Origin: Acidianus sp. HS-5
GTDB lineage: Archaea > Thermoproteota > Thermoprotei_A > Sulfolobales > Sulfolobaceae
DNA: 24,000 bases
Direction: 5' to 3'
NCBI RefSeq assembly: GCF_021655615.1
Contig: NZ_AP025245.1
Coordinates: 181,132-205,131 of the forward strand
Shown here one piece after another: positions 5,646-12,843 of the stretch. The notes under the pieces were generated by a model. That model made no database searches. It saw only the letters and a program-made list of their open reading frames with translations, and had not been told where the DNA came from. The translations under genes and the position numbers were made by a program. Position 1 is the stretch's first letter, and the number at the start of each line of letters is the position of its first letter.

Positions 5646-6131
5646 CTATAATATTCCTCTCCATACCGCTACAGTTCCATAATTAGTTGAAATTATAATA
5701 ACTGCATTAGTATCAGCATAAGGCGGATAAGGTAAAACTACAGTAAACTTTACAACGGAATCTGGATTTAAGATTCCTGAAGATGTCCACTGATATGTAG
5801 TTGGAGTTCTGGAATAATTGTATGAGGAAATTGTTAATTCTTCGCTTTCACTAACGTTAGCATAGTACTTTACTATTACTGCAAAGTGACAAAAACTCCA
5901 CAAAGTAACCGAACCATTATTAGCTACGTTTATGTAAATATCGTTACTATCGGCGGTTACAGAAAGTATTGTTATTCTAGAGCTTAATTGGCCTAAGTTA
6001 GTACTCTGTTTTAAATTTTCTGCATTATATATCAGATTAGCAGAAAATCCTAAGTTAATTAAAATTACTGCTATTAATGTTATTGCAATAACCGAAATCA
6101 ATGAAAATGCCATAATAGTTGAAAGCCCCAT
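5646..6131 (-). CDS. arlF: archaellum stator-associated protein ArlF (FlaF)
   Basis: 161 aa. N-terminal TM helix MGLSTIMAFSLISVIAITLIAVIL is followed by a beta-rich soluble domain. Gene order is arlG-arlF-arlH. It overlaps arlG by 1 nt. Confidence 0.8.
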   Translation of the reverse strand: MGLSTIMAFSLISVIAITLIAVILINLGFSANLIYNAENLKQSTNLGQLSSRITILSVTADSNDIYINVANNGSVTLWSFCHFAVIVKYYANVSESEELTISSYNYSRTPTTYQWTSSGILNPDSVVKFTVVLPYPPYADTNAVIIISTNYGTVAVWRGIL

Positions 6132-6586
6132 TACATCACCTCAAAGACGTAAGTTGTCTCATAACTATTAGGTGCAACAAACATTATTTCATAATATTGA
6201 TTCTGTTGTAACGTGCAGGATAGAGTAATAGTAACTTGTACGGTACTTCCAGGGTAAAGTACCATAGCTGAAGTACTCCAACCGGGAACCGAATTATAGC
6301 CTATCTGTTGTAGCTCGTAAACTTTACCGAAATACACTGTGGAAGATTTTATATAAATTGGAGTCTGGCCCACGTTCTGTATATAAAATACAACAGTATC
6401 CGACGATGTATTGGTAGCGTATACTATGGTAAGAGAAGTAGTGAGCTTCTGAGCCATGTTAACCGAAGCAGAATCAAATCCAGTACTAACGAAAGTTACG
6501 GCATAAAATATTGCACCTGCGAGAATTCCGGCAAGTATAATACTTGCTATTATCAAAATCGATTCACTGATTACTTCTCCCGCCAT
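6131..6586 (-). CDS. arlG: archaellum protein ArlG (FlaG)
   Basis: 151 aa. The N-terminus MAGEVISESILIIASIILAGILAGAIF is archaellin-like, followed by a beta-rich domain. It overlaps arlX by 23 nt. Confidence 0.8.
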   Translation of the reverse strand: MAGEVISESILIIASIILAGILAGAIFYAVTFVSTGFDSASVNMAQKLTTSLTIVYATNTSSDTVVFYIQNVGQTPIYIKSSTVYFGKVYELQQIGYNSVPGWSTSAMVLYPGSTVQVTITLSCTLQQNQYYEIMFVAPNSYETTYVFEVM

Positions 6587-7286
6587 TCAGATCACCCAGA
6601 ATTAAGGAAATGTATTTTACAACATCATTATCAACTGTATTGCTAACTTTGGCTATATCATAAGCAACTAATGCTAAATCTGAAGCGGAAATTTTAGCTC
6701 TATTTTTAGCCAAAATTTCCTCAATTTTTTCTATAGTCTCAACATCTTTTGACGAAAGAAGGTCAAGCCTAAATAACGATATTATTTTTTCCTTATCATA
6801 ATCCATCATAAACAAAAGAACTGATAACTGGATTATTTTCTTCAAATCGATATTATTAGGTAGGCTTTCGCCTATTACTGAACTCGTATTACTATTATTA
6901 TCTTCTTTTCTGATTACGCTCTCTATGTTAAAAGGAGACTCCTCATCACTTTTACTGGCCTTTATAGCCAAAGCTAATTCCTCTAAATTTTTACCTAAGC
7001 CTTGTATACTTTCTTTTATTTCATTATTGCTATCACTAATGACCTTGGATAGATCGTTCTGCATCTTATCTATTCTACCGGTTATTTTACTTATGTCTAC
7101 AGTTACGTTCTGTACAGCTTGTTGAGGAACTTGTTGTGGTTGGGGAATAGTTTGTTGAGTTTTAGGTTTGTTAAATTTGAACATGTAAAGGAACAACATA
7201 ACGAAAAACACCGCCAGAGGTAAACTTACCAATAATAATAAATTAAATATAGGATTTGAGGTAAAATTCAAAAACATTTTCATCAC
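6564..7286 (-). CDS. arlX: archaellum ring protein ArlX (FlaX), Sulfolobales-specific
   Basis: 240 aa. It has an N-terminal TM helix, a Q/P-rich linker (QTIPQPQQVPQQAVQ) and a long charged, coiled-coil-like region. Position is between arlB and arlG. The track start at 7286 is GTG; ATGs lie at 7283 and 7277. GGTGA at 7287..7283 with a 5-nt spacer favours 7277. Confidence 0.8.
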   Translation of the reverse strand: MMKMFLNFTSNPIFNLLLLVSLPLAVFFVMLFLYMFKFNKPKTQQTIPQPQQVPQQAVQNVTVDISKITGRIDKMQNDLSKVISDSNNEIKESIQGLGKNLEELALAIKASKSDEESPFNIESVIRKEDNNSNTSSVIGESLPNNIDLKKIIQLSVLLFMMDYDKEKIISLFRLDLLSSKDVETIEKIEEILAKNRAKISASDLALVAYDIAKVSNTVDNDVVKYISLILGDLNGGRSNQ

Positions 7287-8134: not shown

Positions 8135-8150
8135 TTTCTCACTTTTCTAA

Positions 8151-8213
8151 AAGAAAGAGAGAAGTTACATTTTTTAAATATACTGTTTAGTTTCGATTAT
8201 CAGTCTCTTTCTT
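8151..8213. repeat. perfect 10-bp inverted repeat bracketing the arlB core promoter
   Basis: aagaaagaga at 8151-8160 is the exact reverse complement of tctctttctt at 8204-8213, with a 43-bp spacer that contains the TATA box. Confidence 0.7.
8171..8205 (-). promoter_or_regulatory. arlB promoter module: GACTGATAATCGAAACTAAACAGTATATTTAAAAA (read on the minus strand)
   Basis: TATA element TATTTAAAAA (8180..8171) ends 36 nt before the arlB ATG. That leaves a UTR of about 15 nt containing GTGAG. The upstream half, GACT-N4-ATCGAAA, is shared with two other promoters in the window. Confidence 0.6.
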
Positions 8214-8282
8214 ATATTTTTAAGTATTTTTATCTGATATTATATATTTATTGAGCAGAAATTTGCGTGATATCTTTTAGTA

Positions 8283-8317
8283 GACTTACAGTCGAAATTA
8301 AACGGATTATTTAAAAA
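8283..8317 (+). promoter_or_regulatory. promoter module of the divergent operon: GACTTACAGTCGAAATTAAACGGATTATTTAAAAA
   Basis: TATA element TATTTAAAAA (8308-8317) is centred about 26 nt upstream of the ATG at 8339, a leaderless geometry. By my count 28 of 35 positions are identical to the arlB module. Confidence 0.6.
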
Positions 8318-8338
8318 CATTAGCGTAGATGTGAACTT

Positions 8339-8785
8339 ATGTATTTCCTTGGATATGAAATTATTCAATATAATCATACTGCTCTTTACGTATTCTATAT
8401 ATTTACAAATACTAGTATATTTCATGTGATATGGATTAATCCTAATACACATACAATAGTTAATTGTACAGCTTATGTTTCATTATCAGTATTATTTTCA
8501 TATCCTAGAGGAAATTATACTAATTACTCATGTAATGGAATAAATGTATATGCTCTTAAAAACGGAGATCTGATAATAAGCATGAATGGTGTTATTCTGG
8601 AAAGGATGTGCAAAAATGAGATAATAAAATTGAAATACGCTAATTATCCTGGAATAGCTAGTGAAAATTTGCCTAATTTGTCCAAGTTGGCCGGCTATGA
8701 GAACATTTTTTGTATTAGCGCTTACCTTGCGGTGGGGATAATTCTGAGTCTAGTATTTTTCATTATACTGAGGCGATTTCTATGA
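8339..8785 (+). CDS. small membrane-anchored protein (paralog A), function unknown
   Basis: 148 aa. It has a C-terminal TM helix plus a basic tail (IFCISAYLAVGIILSLVFFIILRRFL), several N-x-S/T sequons and 4 Cys. A leaderless-type TATA lies at -26. Its stop overlaps the next start (ATGATGA). Confidence 0.6.
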   Translation: MYFLGYEIIQYNHTALYVFYIFTNTSIFHVIWINPNTHTIVNCTAYVSLSVLFSYPRGNYTNYSCNGINVYALKNGDLIISMNGVILERMCKNEIIKLKYANYPGIASENLPNLSKLAGYENIFCISAYLAVGIILSLVFFIILRRFL

Positions 8786-10227
8786 TGAGAATCAATAACT
8801 ATAGCTGGGTTTCCATATATTTCTCAAGCTTGGCTCTGATAGCCACTTTCGGAGTCAATTTTACATTAGGAAGAATAACTTATACCGGGTATTTCATTAA
8901 TTGTAATTTAGCTAGAATGTTTCTAGTATTTTCCGCAATATTTATGGCTCTAAATTACGGATATTACCTATTTTTAATTCCAATATCTCTTTTATCTTAC
9001 GTTATTCCTCCAGAATTCATAAGTCCTTTGATTTTTCTAATCTCTCTTACAACGCTAAAGAACGCTAGAGGATTAAAAACTATTTTCCTAATAGCCGATT
9101 CTTTAGGGATAACTTATCTTATATTTTATATTTTCCATATTTATGTAAATTACTTGGTATTACCTCTAATATTAATTCAAGACGGCTTTACACCAATTAT
9201 AATTCCGTTAATGTTCTTAGGTATAATATATGGTCTTGGAAGAAAGATAAAATATGATGCGTTAAGAATTCCGTGGTATTTTCCTTTTATTATAGTTTTA
9301 CTTATAGTAATGTTACCACTTACTCCGTTAAACATATTCCATTATCCGGAAACTGTTGACTGGAGGTTTTATTATCAATGGCTAATCAAACCTGAATTAG
9401 GATGGTTCTTTTACTCAAGGCCTTTATATCTTTCTTTATTATTTGCTCTATCCAAACTTGTTAATGCGCTCACGTTATCTCAACTGGAAATGATTCCATT
9501 ATCGATATTATACCTATTTTCAGCATATAATCTAGGAAATTCTTTACAAAAAGGTTTGGGTCCGTTATCCGCACTGATGGCAGCAGTATCCCCTTCATTG
9601 CTCACATTCTTATACTCCGGTTTGGACTCTAATTTATTTTCAATATCACTATTCTTTTTAAGTTTGAGTTATTTGATTAACGGTAAATTAAAGACTTCAA
9701 TAGCTTTATCTTATGTGGCTCTCTTATCTCATGTTTATGCGTGGGCGCAGTTAGAGGGCGGAGTAATACTTTACATAATTGCAGAACGTGTAATATTTCA
9801 CGACGTTAAAAAGACCTATCTGGATTATGTTAAATATACATCTCCAATGTTTGTAATAGGAATAGCTCTAATATTAACTGGAATTTTACCAGTACCATTT
9901 GGTGATTCTTTTAATAACATTTATTCTCAGTTATCAATATTAAGCTGGGGTACTGCTAACGCCTTCCTTTATTATGCTATATCAATTTATGGTCTAGATG
10001 GAACGCATAAGCTAATTTACAGTTTATACGTAACGTCTATACTTGCAATAATTCCGTTATCAGTAGTCCAAAATTTAATAATTGATATCCCGTTTTTCAT
10101 ACCTGCAGCTATAGGTATTTCTAAATTGAAAAATGTTGGAAGGTCTATACTCCTATTTTTTATCATATGGGGATTGTATATGAGTTTGAACAGTTTTCCA
10201 TATATTTACAAGGGTGTTAGCATATGA
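8782..10227 (+). CDS. polytopic integral membrane protein, function unknown
   Basis: 481 aa, hydrophobic over almost the whole length with at least 10 candidate TM segments. It shares ATGA start/stop overlaps with both neighbours. I recognise no catalytic motif. Confidence 0.75.
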   Translation: MMRINNYSWVSIYFSSLALIATFGVNFTLGRITYTGYFINCNLARMFLVFSAIFMALNYGYYLFLIPISLLSYVIPPEFISPLIFLISLTTLKNARGLKTIFLIADSLGITYLIFYIFHIYVNYLVLPLILIQDGFTPIIIPLMFLGIIYGLGRKIKYDALRIPWYFPFIIVLLIVMLPLTPLNIFHYPETVDWRFYYQWLIKPELGWFFYSRPLYLSLLFALSKLVNALTLSQLEMIPLSILYLFSAYNLGNSLQKGLGPLSALMAAVSPSLLTFLYSGLDSNLFSISLFFLSLSYLINGKLKTSIALSYVALLSHVYAWAQLEGGVILYIIAERVIFHDVKKTYLDYVKYTSPMFVIGIALILTGILPVPFGDSFNNIYSQLSILSWGTANAFLYYAISIYGLDGTHKLIYSLYVTSILAIIPLSVVQNLIIDIPFFIPAAIGISKLKNVGRSILLFFIIWGLYMSLNSFPYIYKGVSI

Positions 10228-10784
10228 GGATATTAATAACCGGATTAAAAGGAGGAAGTGGGAAATCGACAATAGCTTACAGTATAATTAAGGACTTCCT
10301 CAAATCTGGGATAGTCCTTGATTTAGATTATACTTTAACGTTGACTAAACTATTGAAGGATGAAAATTTCAAGATACTCTCTATAGGAAATAGTAAAATC
10401 GATAAGAAATACTTTGAGTTTATTTATACTAAATCACTAAGAAATGAGGATAATGTGATAATAGACTCCTCAAATCCTTTCAACGAGATTATTCCATTAG
10501 AAAATAAAGTATATAGTGAGAATAAAAGAGAGTCAATAACTTATGCTCTGTTTGTTACTCCTCCCCTCTTCATGGAGAAAACCTTAGACCTGGCAAAGAC
10601 TTATGATAGGTTTATAACATCTTTATCGCCAACCGAATTAAGAAAAATACTTGTAATAAATTTTGTTAAAGATAACGAAGATATTTCAATAAACGAAATA
10701 AATTATGTGAAAATACCCTTTTTGAGACATTATATGTATAAATATTATATACCTTTAGGTGATCTAAAATGGTTGAATCCATAA
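10224..10784 (+). CDS. short ParA/MinD-family (SIMIBI) P-loop ATPase
   Basis: 186 aa. It has the deviant Walker A MRILITGLKGGSGKST with the signature Lys. It also has VLDLD (Walker A-prime/switch-like) and NVIIDSS (Walker B-like hydrophobic-Asp). Confidence 0.7.
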   Translation: MRILITGLKGGSGKSTIAYSIIKDFLKSGIVLDLDYTLTLTKLLKDENFKILSIGNSKIDKKYFEFIYTKSLRNEDNVIIDSSNPFNEIIPLENKVYSENKRESITYALFVTPPLFMEKTLDLAKTYDRFITSLSPTELRKILVINFVKDNEDISINEINYVKIPFLRHYMYKYYIPLGDLKWLNP

Positions 10785-10969
10785 GAAAAATAAATGATCT
10801 GGAATATGAAATAGATTTCAACAATAGCGTAGTAGTAACTATGAAGATAGAGGAAGAATTTCTTGAGGAAATAGATAAGGCTACGACAGTTCTTGGGTTT
10901 AAGAACAGAAGCGATCTGATAAGAGATGCACTAAAAGAATACTTAAAAAGCCTTAACACAGAATCTTAA
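10769..10969 (+). CDS. ribbon-helix-helix (CopG/Arc/MetJ-type) DNA-binding protein
   Basis: 66 aa. A tail of about 20 aa is followed by VVVTMKIEEEFLEEIDKATTVLGFKNRSDLIRDALKEYL, which fits a beta strand, helix 1, turn and helix 2. The start overlaps the ATPase gene by 16 nt. Confidence 0.7.
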   Translation: MVESIRKINDLEYEIDFNNSVVVTMKIEEEFLEEIDKATTVLGFKNRSDLIRDALKEYLKSLNTES

Positions 10970-11324
10970 TGGCTTCATCAATGCCTTGATATGTATCATA
11001 TATCAGGACTTCATTACCCTTTTTTATTATACAATGTTTACCGTCGACTAAAGCTATATTATTACCAGTTTTAGAAGGGAAAAATCCGAAGATACTTAAA
11101 TCATGAGTATAAACTATTTTATTACATACTTCTTCTCCCTTTTTCTCGTATTTCTCTAGGAATTTGTTAACGTCTTCCTGACTTTTTATCCTTGGCATCT
11201 TAGTTATCATGTAAGTCATCATGATTAAGAGTATTGATGGTAAAAATAAGATGGGCTTAGAAAAATAGTATCCTAACGATGTAGATAATGCCGATAGTGC
11301 AATTGTAATTACTTCTTTCATCAT
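10953..11324 (-). CDS. small membrane protein (two N-terminal TM helices plus a soluble domain), function unknown
   Basis: 123-aa ORF. It is divergent from the arnR-like gene, and its 3' end overlaps the RHH gene 3' end by 17 nt. Confidence 0.5.
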   Translation of the reverse strand: MMKEVITIALSALSTSLGYYFSKPILFLPSILLIMMTYMITKMPRIKSQEDVNKFLEKYEKKGEEVCNKIVYTHDLSIFGFFPSKTGNNIALVDGKHCIIKKGNEVLIYDTYQGIDEAIKILC

Positions 11325-11495: not shown

Positions 11496-12296
11496 ATGTC
11501 GCTTGTAAATTTCATTAATACACTTAAGGAACTAGACGAAAGTATAGATTTCGCAAAAGGAGTTTATCAATGGAAGATAGTGTTAATACTTTTCATAAAA
11601 GGACCTATGAGTACTTCAGAAATAGCAAAAGAAATTGGAGTTAACAAGAAAAGCGTTATAGATTCAATACGAAAGTTAATAGACAAAGGATTGGTCGAAA
11701 GAGTAAAATATGATATTTATACCTTGTCAGAAAACGGTAAAAAATTAATGGAAAAACTTAGCGGGATTTCAACGCAACAGTTGCAAGTAATCGATTTAGA
11801 TCCTACTGAAGATATATTGAATAATGTAACTCATTACTATTACTTTGTTGAAATAGTAAAGGCATCCACTTTAAATAATTATAAGGTTCCTATCAATTCA
11901 TTGTGTAGAGAATTGGGAGTATCTAAGAGGACATTAATAAATTACCTTGATATATTTTCTACAAAATATAAATATTTCAAGAAAATAACTAAAAAAGGAT
12001 TATTTAGAAATAAAGTAGAATATATGCTCACAGATGAGGGTAAAAAGATTGCATATAAGATTCCTGGAACGTATAAACTGAGACGTAATACATTCTTAAA
12101 GATACTAACCAAGGTTACGCTAAGTAATTCCTTAGAATATTCGATATTTAAGATTCTTGTTTCATTTTCAATTACAGCTCCATTAATATTTATGTTATCA
12201 AAATATCCTGAAGATAAAATAGTTGCGGCAATATGGTTATATTTTCTTGTATTCTTCGGTGTCTCAAGTGTTTTGGCTTATCTATTATCTAAGTGA
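11496..12296 (+). CDS. arnR: membrane-anchored HTH one-component regulator, ArnR-like (archaellum regulatory network activator)
   Basis: 266 aa. The first winged-helix region is MSTSEIAKEIGVNKKSVIDSIRKLIDKGLVERV. A second HTH-like region is INSLCRELGVSKRTLINYLD. There are two C-terminal TM helices (ILVSFSITAPLIFML and IVAAIWLYFLVFFGVSSVLAYLL). This architecture and the location next to the arl operon match ArnR of Sulfolobus acidocaldarius. Confidence 0.65.
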   Translation: MSLVNFINTLKELDESIDFAKGVYQWKIVLILFIKGPMSTSEIAKEIGVNKKSVIDSIRKLIDKGLVERVKYDIYTLSENGKKLMEKLSGISTQQLQVIDLDPTEDILNNVTHYYYFVEIVKASTLNNYKVPINSLCRELGVSKRTLINYLDIFSTKYKYFKKITKKGLFRNKVEYMLTDEGKKIAYKIPGTYKLRRNTFLKILTKVTLSNSLEYSIFKILVSFSITAPLIFMLSKYPEDKIVAAIWLYFLVFFGVSSVLAYLLSK

Positions 12297-12329
12297 CTAC
12301 AAGTCGAAAGTGAAACTCAGATTTAAAAA
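12295..12329 (+). promoter_or_regulatory. third copy of the promoter module: GACTACAAGTCGAAAGTGAAACTCAGATTTAAAAA
   Basis: It has the same GACT-N4-GTCGAAA-N11-ATTTAAAAA spacing as 8283-8317. The TATA centre is about 27 nt upstream of the ATG at 12352. The module begins at the arnR-like stop codon (12294-12296). Confidence 0.55.
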
Positions 12330-12351: not shown

Positions 12352-12843
12352 ATGGATCTGGTAAATCAAACGTTATTTTACACTGTAATGCAAGGTCATA
12401 CCTTGCTCTATTTCCTTCTAATTAAAATAGTAAGTGTTCAAGGAAACAGTGTTTTAGTTAATATCACAAATATTGATACTAATGGTGTTGTATTAAATTA
12501 CACTGCAGCAATGCCCTTGTTTCAAATAATTTGTAATAATTCTAGCGGAAGGCCGATAATGTTTGATGGAGTTAATGCAGAAGCCGTATGTCATAACGAA
12601 ATGAGAATAATTGTTGATACTTATAATCATTTGGTACTATCTTACGTAGAAAATGAAGAGAACTTTACATTAAACGGCAGTACAATACCAATAGCTCCAG
12701 GAAAGATATTGCACATTAACTTACCTTTTTCAAAAAATCATAGTATTATCACTACTTATGAGTATCAAGCTTTAGCCTTGAGTACGGTACTTGTATTCTC
12801 ATTCTATGTAATGTTAAATAGGGTGGAAAAACGAGAAACCTAG
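12352..12843 (+). CDS. small membrane-anchored protein (paralog B of 8339-8785), function unknown
   Basis: The track ORF starts at a TTG (12223) inside the arnR-like gene. The first ATG is 12352, with a TATA at -27, giving 163 aa. It has a C-terminal TM helix plus a charged tail and several sequons. Collinear matches to paralog A are HTxLY, CN and (N/D)GVxxExxCxNE. Confidence 0.55.
   Translation: MDLVNQTLFYTVMQGHTLLYFLLIKIVSVQGNSVLVNITNIDTNGVVLNYTAAMPLFQIICNNSSGRPIMFDGVNAEAVCHNEMRIIVDTYNHLVLSYVENEENFTLNGSTIPIAPGKILHINLPFSKNHSIITTYEYQALALSTVLVFSFYVMLNRVEKRET

Follow-up and report, generated by a model that had tools for sequence, protein, structure and literature searches.

Is the archaellin gene of Acidianus sp. 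HS-5 regulated together with the operon that it faces? The question is raised by a 24,000-nt stretch of contig NZ_AP025245.1 (positions 181,132–205,131; the window), in which a 204-nt intergenic region between arlB and a divergent operon, headed by genes for the membrane proteins p148 and p481, contains two facing copies of a 35-nt promoter module. A preliminary description of these copies gave their sequences, their coordinates and a count of 28 identical positions out of 35, and on re-reading the window we found all of these exactly right. Both of the copies that it recognised are real, and a third copy, which it missed, lies at 12295-12329 on the plus strand, upstream of a gene for a 163-aa protein, p163. 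The observation is real, and stronger than first described. We consider it probable that all three modules are ArnR-dependent promoters that co-regulate arlB, the divergent operon (p148, p481, a ParA-like ATPase and a ribbon-helix-helix [RHH] protein) and p163.

The promoter module and its three copies

The facing pair is the top inverted repeat that a repeat search found in the window (36 nt long, with 81% complementarity and 75 nt separating its arms), and its 35-nt arms, 8171-8205 on the minus strand and 8283-8317 on the plus strand, agree at 28/35 positions. Searching the window for GACT-N4-RTCGAAA brought out the third copy, which lies ∼4 kb from the pair, overlaps the stop codon of a 266-aa arnR-family gene and has no inverted partner. 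The exact spacing first noted between the two arms held, and it is identical in the third copy; the 18-base pattern GAC-N5-RTCGAAA-N11-ATTTAAAA has three exact matches in the window. The string TATTTAAAAA occurs only twice within the 24 kb, once in each facing arm.

With a G+C content of 24.5% in the intergenic region, TATA-like strings are common there, and two AT-rich promoters might look alike by chance. In 300 dinucleotide-preserving shuffles of the 204 nt, however, the best 35-nt inverted match averaged 20.4 identities (sd 1.1, maximum 25), and none of the 300 reached 28. The 18-base pattern had no match in 100 shuffles even with two mismatches tolerated, versus three exact matches observed. 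Together with conservation of the module at the orthologous promoters of four further genomes (see below), these statistics already refute a chance likeness, to which we give virtually no credence.

The length and complementarity of the inverted repeat might instead suggest that its role lies in DNA or RNA structure, be it a cruciform, an insulator or a bidirectional terminator, rather than in two promoters. Yet the arms stand 75 nt apart, each with a terminal TATA box suitably spaced from a start codon, and the third copy does without a partner. A sigma-70/terminator scan, of a type irrelevant for an archaeon, found no terminators or terminator-like sites. In S. tokodaii and in Saccharolobus, the two arms have collapsed into a single 15-bp palindrome (see below). 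We regard a structural role as very improbable.

At each of the three promoters, a 15-bp semi-palindrome (the box) ends 15 nt before TTTAAA (Table 1). The sequence TTTAAAAA starts 29–30 nt before the ATG of p148 and p163 and 44 nt before that of arlB, where GTGAG intervenes; all of this is conserved. For p148 and p163, the TATA box ends 22–23 nt before the ATG, a distance kept among relatives (in five genomes for p148). The A/T-rich 8-mer of an archaeal core promoter is expected ∼26–30 nt upstream of the transcription start, so these distances fit leaderless mRNAs for both genes. For arlB, the predicted leader is ∼15 nt and contains a Shine-Dalgarno sequence, GTGAG, at 8142..8138, that is invariant in relatives, as are TTTAAAA and GTGAGAAA.

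Conservation among Acidianus-clade genomes

Orthologous loci were gathered through homologues of ArlX, ArnR and ArlI. The close relatives were four contigs, L004, L005, L009 and L022, with ArlX 77–85% identical to that of the window. All three copies of the module are found at the same three promoters in L004, L005 and L022, and both expected copies are present in L009, a partial contig that covers only the arlB and p148 promoters. The box of the p148 promoter is conserved in all four contigs and also in L006 and Metallosphaera.

Among the 14 module instances of the five Acidianus-clade genomes, the only invariant parts are GAC, A(G)TCGAAA and TTTAAAA; the interior of the box varies freely. 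Invariant half-sites and TATA box with a free interior are the signature of a protein-binding palindrome beside a TATA box. In a four-genome intergenic alignment, 78% of the module columns were invariant, whereas the central spacer had 38% (Fisher p = 9e-7).

The arlB and p148 boxes lie 88–89 bp apart, centre to centre, in 5/5 Acidianus-clade genomes (8200 versus 8288 in the window). That this distance is fixed despite a diverged spacer could reflect cooperative binding; the corresponding distance in Metallosphaera is 355 bp, so such an arrangement would not be general.

An exact-module scan of metagenome contigs returned 60 loci and no further regulon members; 59 were unrelated, single chance matches. 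The sole relative among the 60 was L022, with its same three promoters.

Comparison with the published ArnR box

The flaB promoter of Sulfolobus acidocaldarius contains two 15-bp boxes within -84..-43, with the consensus TCGAC-N5-GTCGA (PMC6396743). We mapped the oligonucleotides of Table S3 of that paper, namely pflaB41 (ACGTCGATCAGCAGTCGAAAAATTGTGATTTTTGGTCGAAG), the proximal 'box 1' (ATTGTGATTTTTGGTCGAAG) and the distal 'box 2' (AACGTCGATCAGCAGTCGAA), onto the S. acidocaldarius locus (L010). This places TTTAAAG at -28, with the proximal box spanning -59..-45 and the distal one -80..-66. The proximal box ends 17 nt before TTTAAA, compared with 15 nt in Acidianus, which puts the Acidianus boxes at about -58..-43. 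On this calibration, the position of -36 to -52 first proposed for the element has to be corrected.

The Acidianus boxes share with the S. acidocaldarius box (PMC6396743, PMC4307647, PMC10117864) the 15-bp semi-palindromic TCGAC-N5-GTCGA frame, a matching position directly upstream of the B recognition element (BRE) and TATA box of arlB, an arnR-family gene adjoining the arl operon, and a TATA-proximal half, GTCGA(A), that is the best conserved part in both. They differ in that S. acidocaldarius has two boxes 21 bp apart, whereas Acidianus has one per promoter, and in that the distal half-site is degenerate in Acidianus (GAGAC, TAGAC and GTGAC versus TCGAC). Moreover, box and TATA form a 35-nt module of fixed spacing that Acidianus has at three promoters; the genes driven by two of them are missing from S. 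acidocaldarius. The proximal box of S. acidocaldarius has been used experimentally.

Against the ten defined bases of the consensus, the p148 box matches at nine and the p163 box at eight. The latter closely resembles the proximal box of S. acidocaldarius, GTGAT-TTTTG-GTCGA. The arlB box is positionally orthologous to that same box 1 and to the perfect TCGAC-N5-GTCGA of Metallosphaera, S. tokodaii and Saccharolobus.

The 266-aa product of the arnR-family gene, whose start lies 3.4 kb upstream of the arlB start codon, matches the NCBIfam model NF041016 (trans_reg_ArnR) over residues 6-266 with 245.7 bits (E 5.4e-73). By BLASTP, it is 38% identical to S. acidocaldarius ArnR over residues 8-266, including the hydrophobic C-terminus (E 2e-51). 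Pfam helix-turn-helix (HTH) families match at residues 25-91, and a Metallosphaera homologue, 51% identical, carries the NCBI name ArnR1. We classify the protein from these matches as a member of the ArnR family, though not as an equivalog by the NCBI criterion. Synteny of arnR with the arl genes extends to L004, L005, L022, L011, L012, L013 and L010, and box and arnR gene co-occur in every locus examined.

The preliminary description had suggested a shared upstream activator element, possibly an ArnR box. Comparison with the published element, in its frame and position, supports that interpretation, as do phylogenetic footprinting of the orthologous promoters and the ArnR-family neighbour.

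Several points weigh against the assignment to ArnR. The arlB box matches the published consensus at only 7/10 bases. Sequences within two mismatches of the consensus are not enriched in the window (6 versus 3.0 ± 1.9 expected), so that the assignment rests on position, orthology, conservation pattern and the neighbouring arnR gene. The score of the 266-aa protein, 245.7 bits, falls below the NCBIfam equivalog cut-off of 400. ArnR binding, activation, start sites and co-induction are things that we infer for Acidianus. In S. acidocaldarius, Kd values measured in vitro were micromolar, and fragments with a single box were bound by neither ArnR nor ArnR1, both boxes at their 21-bp distance being needed (PMC6396743). 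Each Acidianus promoter has one box; the nearest other is 88–89 bp away for arlB and p148, and the p163 box has none. The two-box arrangement may be specific to S. acidocaldarius, since S. tokodaii and Saccharolobus, too, have just one box. Finally, ArnR bound aapF and upsX fragments that lack the inverted repeats (PMC6396743), so its sequence specificity is not fully defined.

This behaviour of single boxes and box-less promoters would also suit a shared cis-element that is real but read by a regulator other than ArnR, such as the RHH protein, an Lrs14/AbfR1-type factor or a repressor acting via ArnA/ArnB. Co-regulation would then be kept, possibly with a different sign. The divergent operon itself encodes the DNA-binding RHH protein, and several more regulators act on S. 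acidocaldarius arlB (PMC4307647). However, the flaB promoter loses its activity, wholly or to a large part, when the boxes are deleted or mutated, and ArnR and ArnR1 do bind the two-box fragment (PMC6396743). The arnR gene accompanies the box in every locus examined; by contrast, S. tokodaii, Saccharolobus and S. acidocaldarius have the box but no RHH gene in the operon. We judge another regulator unlikely, and continue with ArnR as the probable one.

The element in other Sulfolobales

Lack of conservation at orthologous promoters had been named as an outcome that would speak against the element. Instead, all 10 loci examined had the box at the arlB promoter, and in Metallosphaera, S. tokodaii and Saccharolobus it fits the consensus perfectly. 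In all lineages compared, GTCGA begins 19–21 nt before the arlB TTTAAA. In Metallosphaera, the arlB promoter has TCGACTTTGGGTCGA and the promoter of the p148 orthologue has GCGACTTAAAGTCGA.

A different layout is found in S. tokodaii (L012 6564-6578) and Saccharolobus (L013 6534-6548), where the intergenic region of 122 bp has one perfect palindrome, TCGACTGGTAGTCGA, with 6-bp half-sites TCGACT/AGTCGA, halfway between a pair of opposed TATA boxes. From its placement, this single palindrome appears to serve both arlB and the divergent p148-type promoter. The divergent promoter carries the element, its own or shared, in every lineage with a p148-p481 operon.

In S. acidocaldarius, the gene divergent from arlB is Saci_1179. 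The distance from the distal box (L010 6521-6535) to the opposed Saci_1179 TATA box equals that from the shared box to the p148 TATA box in S. tokodaii, and this geometry suggests that the distal box may work in both directions, driving Saci_1179 too. We rejected the notion that it serves Saci_1179 only, as it is the published 'box-2', whose mutation strongly lowers flaB activity (PMC6396743).

Two further loci were noted. In Candidatus Aramenus sulfurataquae (L002), the homologues of arnR and p148 (5885-6499 and 8205-8667) are broken across several frames, so they are either pseudogenes or errors of a draft metagenome-assembled genome (MAG); at arlB, both box and TATA are intact. Another contig, which bears the label 'Methanobacteriota archaeon' (L003 50-3502), contains homologues of ArlX (35% identical), p148 and p481 in the Sulfolobales arrangement, with GTCGAA 20 nt before TTAATT upstream of arlB. 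Its taxonomic label looks doubtful.

Genes predicted to be co-regulated

Features of the window, to which a Logan contig is identical, are collected in Table 1. The p148-p481 pair is found, in divergent orientation to arlB, in Acidianus, Aramenus, Metallosphaera, S. tokodaii, Saccharolobus and one MAG that is more distant; S. acidocaldarius lacks it. The downstream ATPase and RHH genes are paired in the Acidianus clade and are otherwise arranged or missing in other genera. Their pairing resembles a partition or positioning cassette.

Table 1. Promoter elements and genes around arlB in the window
Feature	Position	Strand	Description
arlX	6564-7286	-	Pfam ArlX, E 1.6e-67; 100% identical to HS5_02090; followed by the rest of the arl operon
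arlB, archaellin, 272 aa	7316..8134	-	Pfam Arch_flagellin, E 1.2e-18
TATA box of arlB	8171..8179	-	ATTTAAAAA; predicted start near 8149, from TATA geometry
Repeat arm, arlB promoter	8205..8171	-	GACTGATAATCGAAACTAAACAGTATATTTAAAAA
ArnR-type box, arlB promoter	8193..8207	-	GAGAC-TGATA-ATCGA; TATA-proximal half ATCGA(AA); conserved in 5 Acidianus-clade genomes
Central spacer between the two boxes	8208..8280		AT-rich, sequence weakly conserved, box distance kept
ArnR-type box, divergent promoter	8281..8295	+	TAGAC-TTACA-GTCGA
Repeat arm, divergent promoter	8283-8317	+	GACTTACAGTCGAAATTAAACGGATTATTTAAAAA
TATA box of divergent operon	8309..8317	+	ATTTAAAAA; ends 22 nt before ATG at 8339
Divergent operon	8339..10969	+	p148, p481, ParA/MinD-like ATPase, RHH protein
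p148, 148 aa	8339-8785	+	beta-rich ectodomain, C-terminal transmembrane helix
p481, 481 aa	8782-10227	+	polytopic membrane protein
CbiA/ParA/MinD-like ATPase, 186 aa	10224-10784	+	Walker A KGGSGKS
RHH protein, 66 aa	10769-10969	+	match to the aCcr1 cell-cycle regulator family of 39 bits, below the cut-off of 60
arnR-family gene, 266 aa	11496..12296	+	N-terminal winged HTH, two C-terminal hydrophobic helices
Third ArnR-type box	12293..12307	+	GTGAC-TACAA-GTCGA; overlaps arnR stop TGA at 12294-12296; conserved in L004, L005, L022
Third module copy	12295-12329	+	GACTACAAGTCGAAAGTGAAACTCAGATTTAAAAA
TATA box of p163 promoter	12321..12329	+	ATTTAAAAA; ends 23 nt before ATG at 12352
p163, 163 aa	12352..12843	+	distant paralogue of p148

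The paralogy of p148 and p163 is evident from comparison of the family alignments (hhalign probability 95%, E 3.7e-8, 144 columns); direct BLASTP gave E 0.064. Metallosphaera, Aramenus, S. tokodaii and Saccharolobus have orthologues of p163 that adjoin arnR. Those of S. tokodaii and Saccharolobus directly follow the arnR stop codon, with GGTGA in front of them; they lack a separate promoter and are therefore probably transcribed together with arnR. The Acidianus-clade gene is preceded by a box and TATA of its own, and that of Aramenus by at least a half-box and TATA.

The paralogy suggests a further explanation, that the modules are relics of promoter duplication: p148 and p163 would have carried their promoter along when they duplicated, with one copy recruited to arlB, and no shared regulation today. 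It would also suit the sharing of AAACTAAAC, which lies between box and TATA and thus outside the published box, by the arlB and p148 modules of the Acidianus clade. But paralogues that retain only profile-level similarity could not have kept neutral promoter DNA 80% identical, and it is the half-sites and TATA that hold conservation while the box interior and flanks drift. The arlB box is present, moreover, in genera whose p163 has no promoter of its own. We find a duplication relic improbable, and return to ArnR-dependent co-regulation.

For p481, only 24 relatives were found at E ≤ 1e-3 among 1.84 billion representatives, and neither the protein nor its family profile had a Pfam, NCBIfam or PDB sequence match. 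Invariant residues include D193, R213 and H317. A GT-C enzyme was considered and dropped as too weak a case, the sole hint being a sub-threshold match to the STT3 N-terminal domain in a distant relative (24.0 versus 24.5 bits). The single-sequence AlphaFold model of p481 was unusable (predicted local distance difference test [pLDDT] 41.6). The p148 model, also predicted without an alignment, reached pLDDT 62, and Foldseek returned nothing meaningful for it against the PDB (template modelling score ∼0.25, best E 0.01).

The sole expression evidence for co-regulation is indirect and comes from S. acidocaldarius, where Saci_1179 is a member of the ArnRAB iModulon (PMC8578740). Homology of Saci_1179 to p148 was not detectable (hhalign probability 0.7%), so this result applies to the Acidianus operon by position only. 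Saci_1179 is a small membrane protein whose deletion had no archaellation phenotype (PMC4307647).

A model for regulation by the module

Each 35-nt module would be a complete regulated archaeal promoter, with a 15-bp semi-palindrome, (N2)GAC-N5-RTCGA, fused to a TATA box at fixed spacing. ArnR, tethered to the membrane by its two C-terminal helices, would use its winged HTH to bind the box, in dimeric or multimeric form; ArnR multimers have been described (PMC6396743, PMC12107092). Bound there, it would help TBP and TFB to load on the adjacent BRE/TATA, the kind of recruitment proposed for ArnR box 1 at the S. acidocaldarius flaB promoter (PMC5817253). Given the identical box-to-TATA geometry at the three promoters, a joint response is expected, and the three units would be switched on together under conditions in which ArnR is active (nutrient limitation in the model organism).

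A wider reading goes further, and we put it forward tentatively, as possible. The ArnR regulon of most Sulfolobales might also include an archaellum-linked membrane set, consisting of p148, p163 and p481 and, in some lineages, the ParA/MinD-like ATPase and RHH protein, which would have been overlooked because S. acidocaldarius lost it. These proteins might be accessory factors for assembly, modification or placement of the archaellum, and the single palindrome might be bidirectional.

To our knowledge, ArnR is the only membrane-bound activator known for a crenarchaeal archaellum, and arlB has so far been the sole target promoter known to contain the box. Its recurrence at three promoters around arnR sharpens the site, to 6-bp half-sites TCGACT/AGTCGA with a dominant TATA-proximal half that ends 15–17 nt before TTTAAA. 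The data further suggest that two divergent promoters can be served by one palindrome, and they nominate conserved membrane proteins of unknown function as co-regulated with motility. The advance is incremental, since the literature already contains the cis-element, the regulator and the idea that the divergent gene is co-expressed; new here are the predicted extra targets and the proposed module with its bidirectional architecture. Because p148 and p481 are absent from S. acidocaldarius, the prediction calls for Metallosphaera or for the genetically tractable Saccharolobus islandicus.

Relation to other archaeal activator sites

Three other systems invite comparison. The ARA box at arabinose-inducible promoters of Saccharolobus solfataricus and S. 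islandicus likewise activates from upstream; its distance from BRE/TATA is fixed, several promoters of one Sulfolobales regulon share it, and it was proposed to offset weak core elements (cited in PMC5817253). It differs in sequence and regulator, which are unrelated, and in physiology (sugar catabolism versus motility). The EarA sites (TACATA, four times) upstream of the fla/arl promoter of Methanococcus maripaludis and Pyrococcus furiosus are also activator sites, needed for transcription of the archaellin operon (PMC6396743, PMC10665913). EarA, however, is soluble rather than membrane-bound and not homologous to ArnR, and its sites are 6-bp direct motifs rather than a palindrome. The third system is that of archaeal Lrp/Ptr2-type sites, imperfect palindromes of 13–17 bp with an AT-rich centre (PMC6396743). 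These share the dimer-type palindrome with a non-conserved centre, the location upstream of BRE/TATA and the proposed recruitment of TBP/TFB, but are bound by another protein family; ArnR, anchored in the membrane, is a one-component winged-HTH protein that lacks a RAM domain.

A neighbouring gene

Between the divergent operon and arnR, the minus strand encodes a 123-aa protein of unknown function (10953-11324). It is conserved in the Acidianus clade and has weaker homologues in Metallosphaera, S. tokodaii and Saccharolobus.

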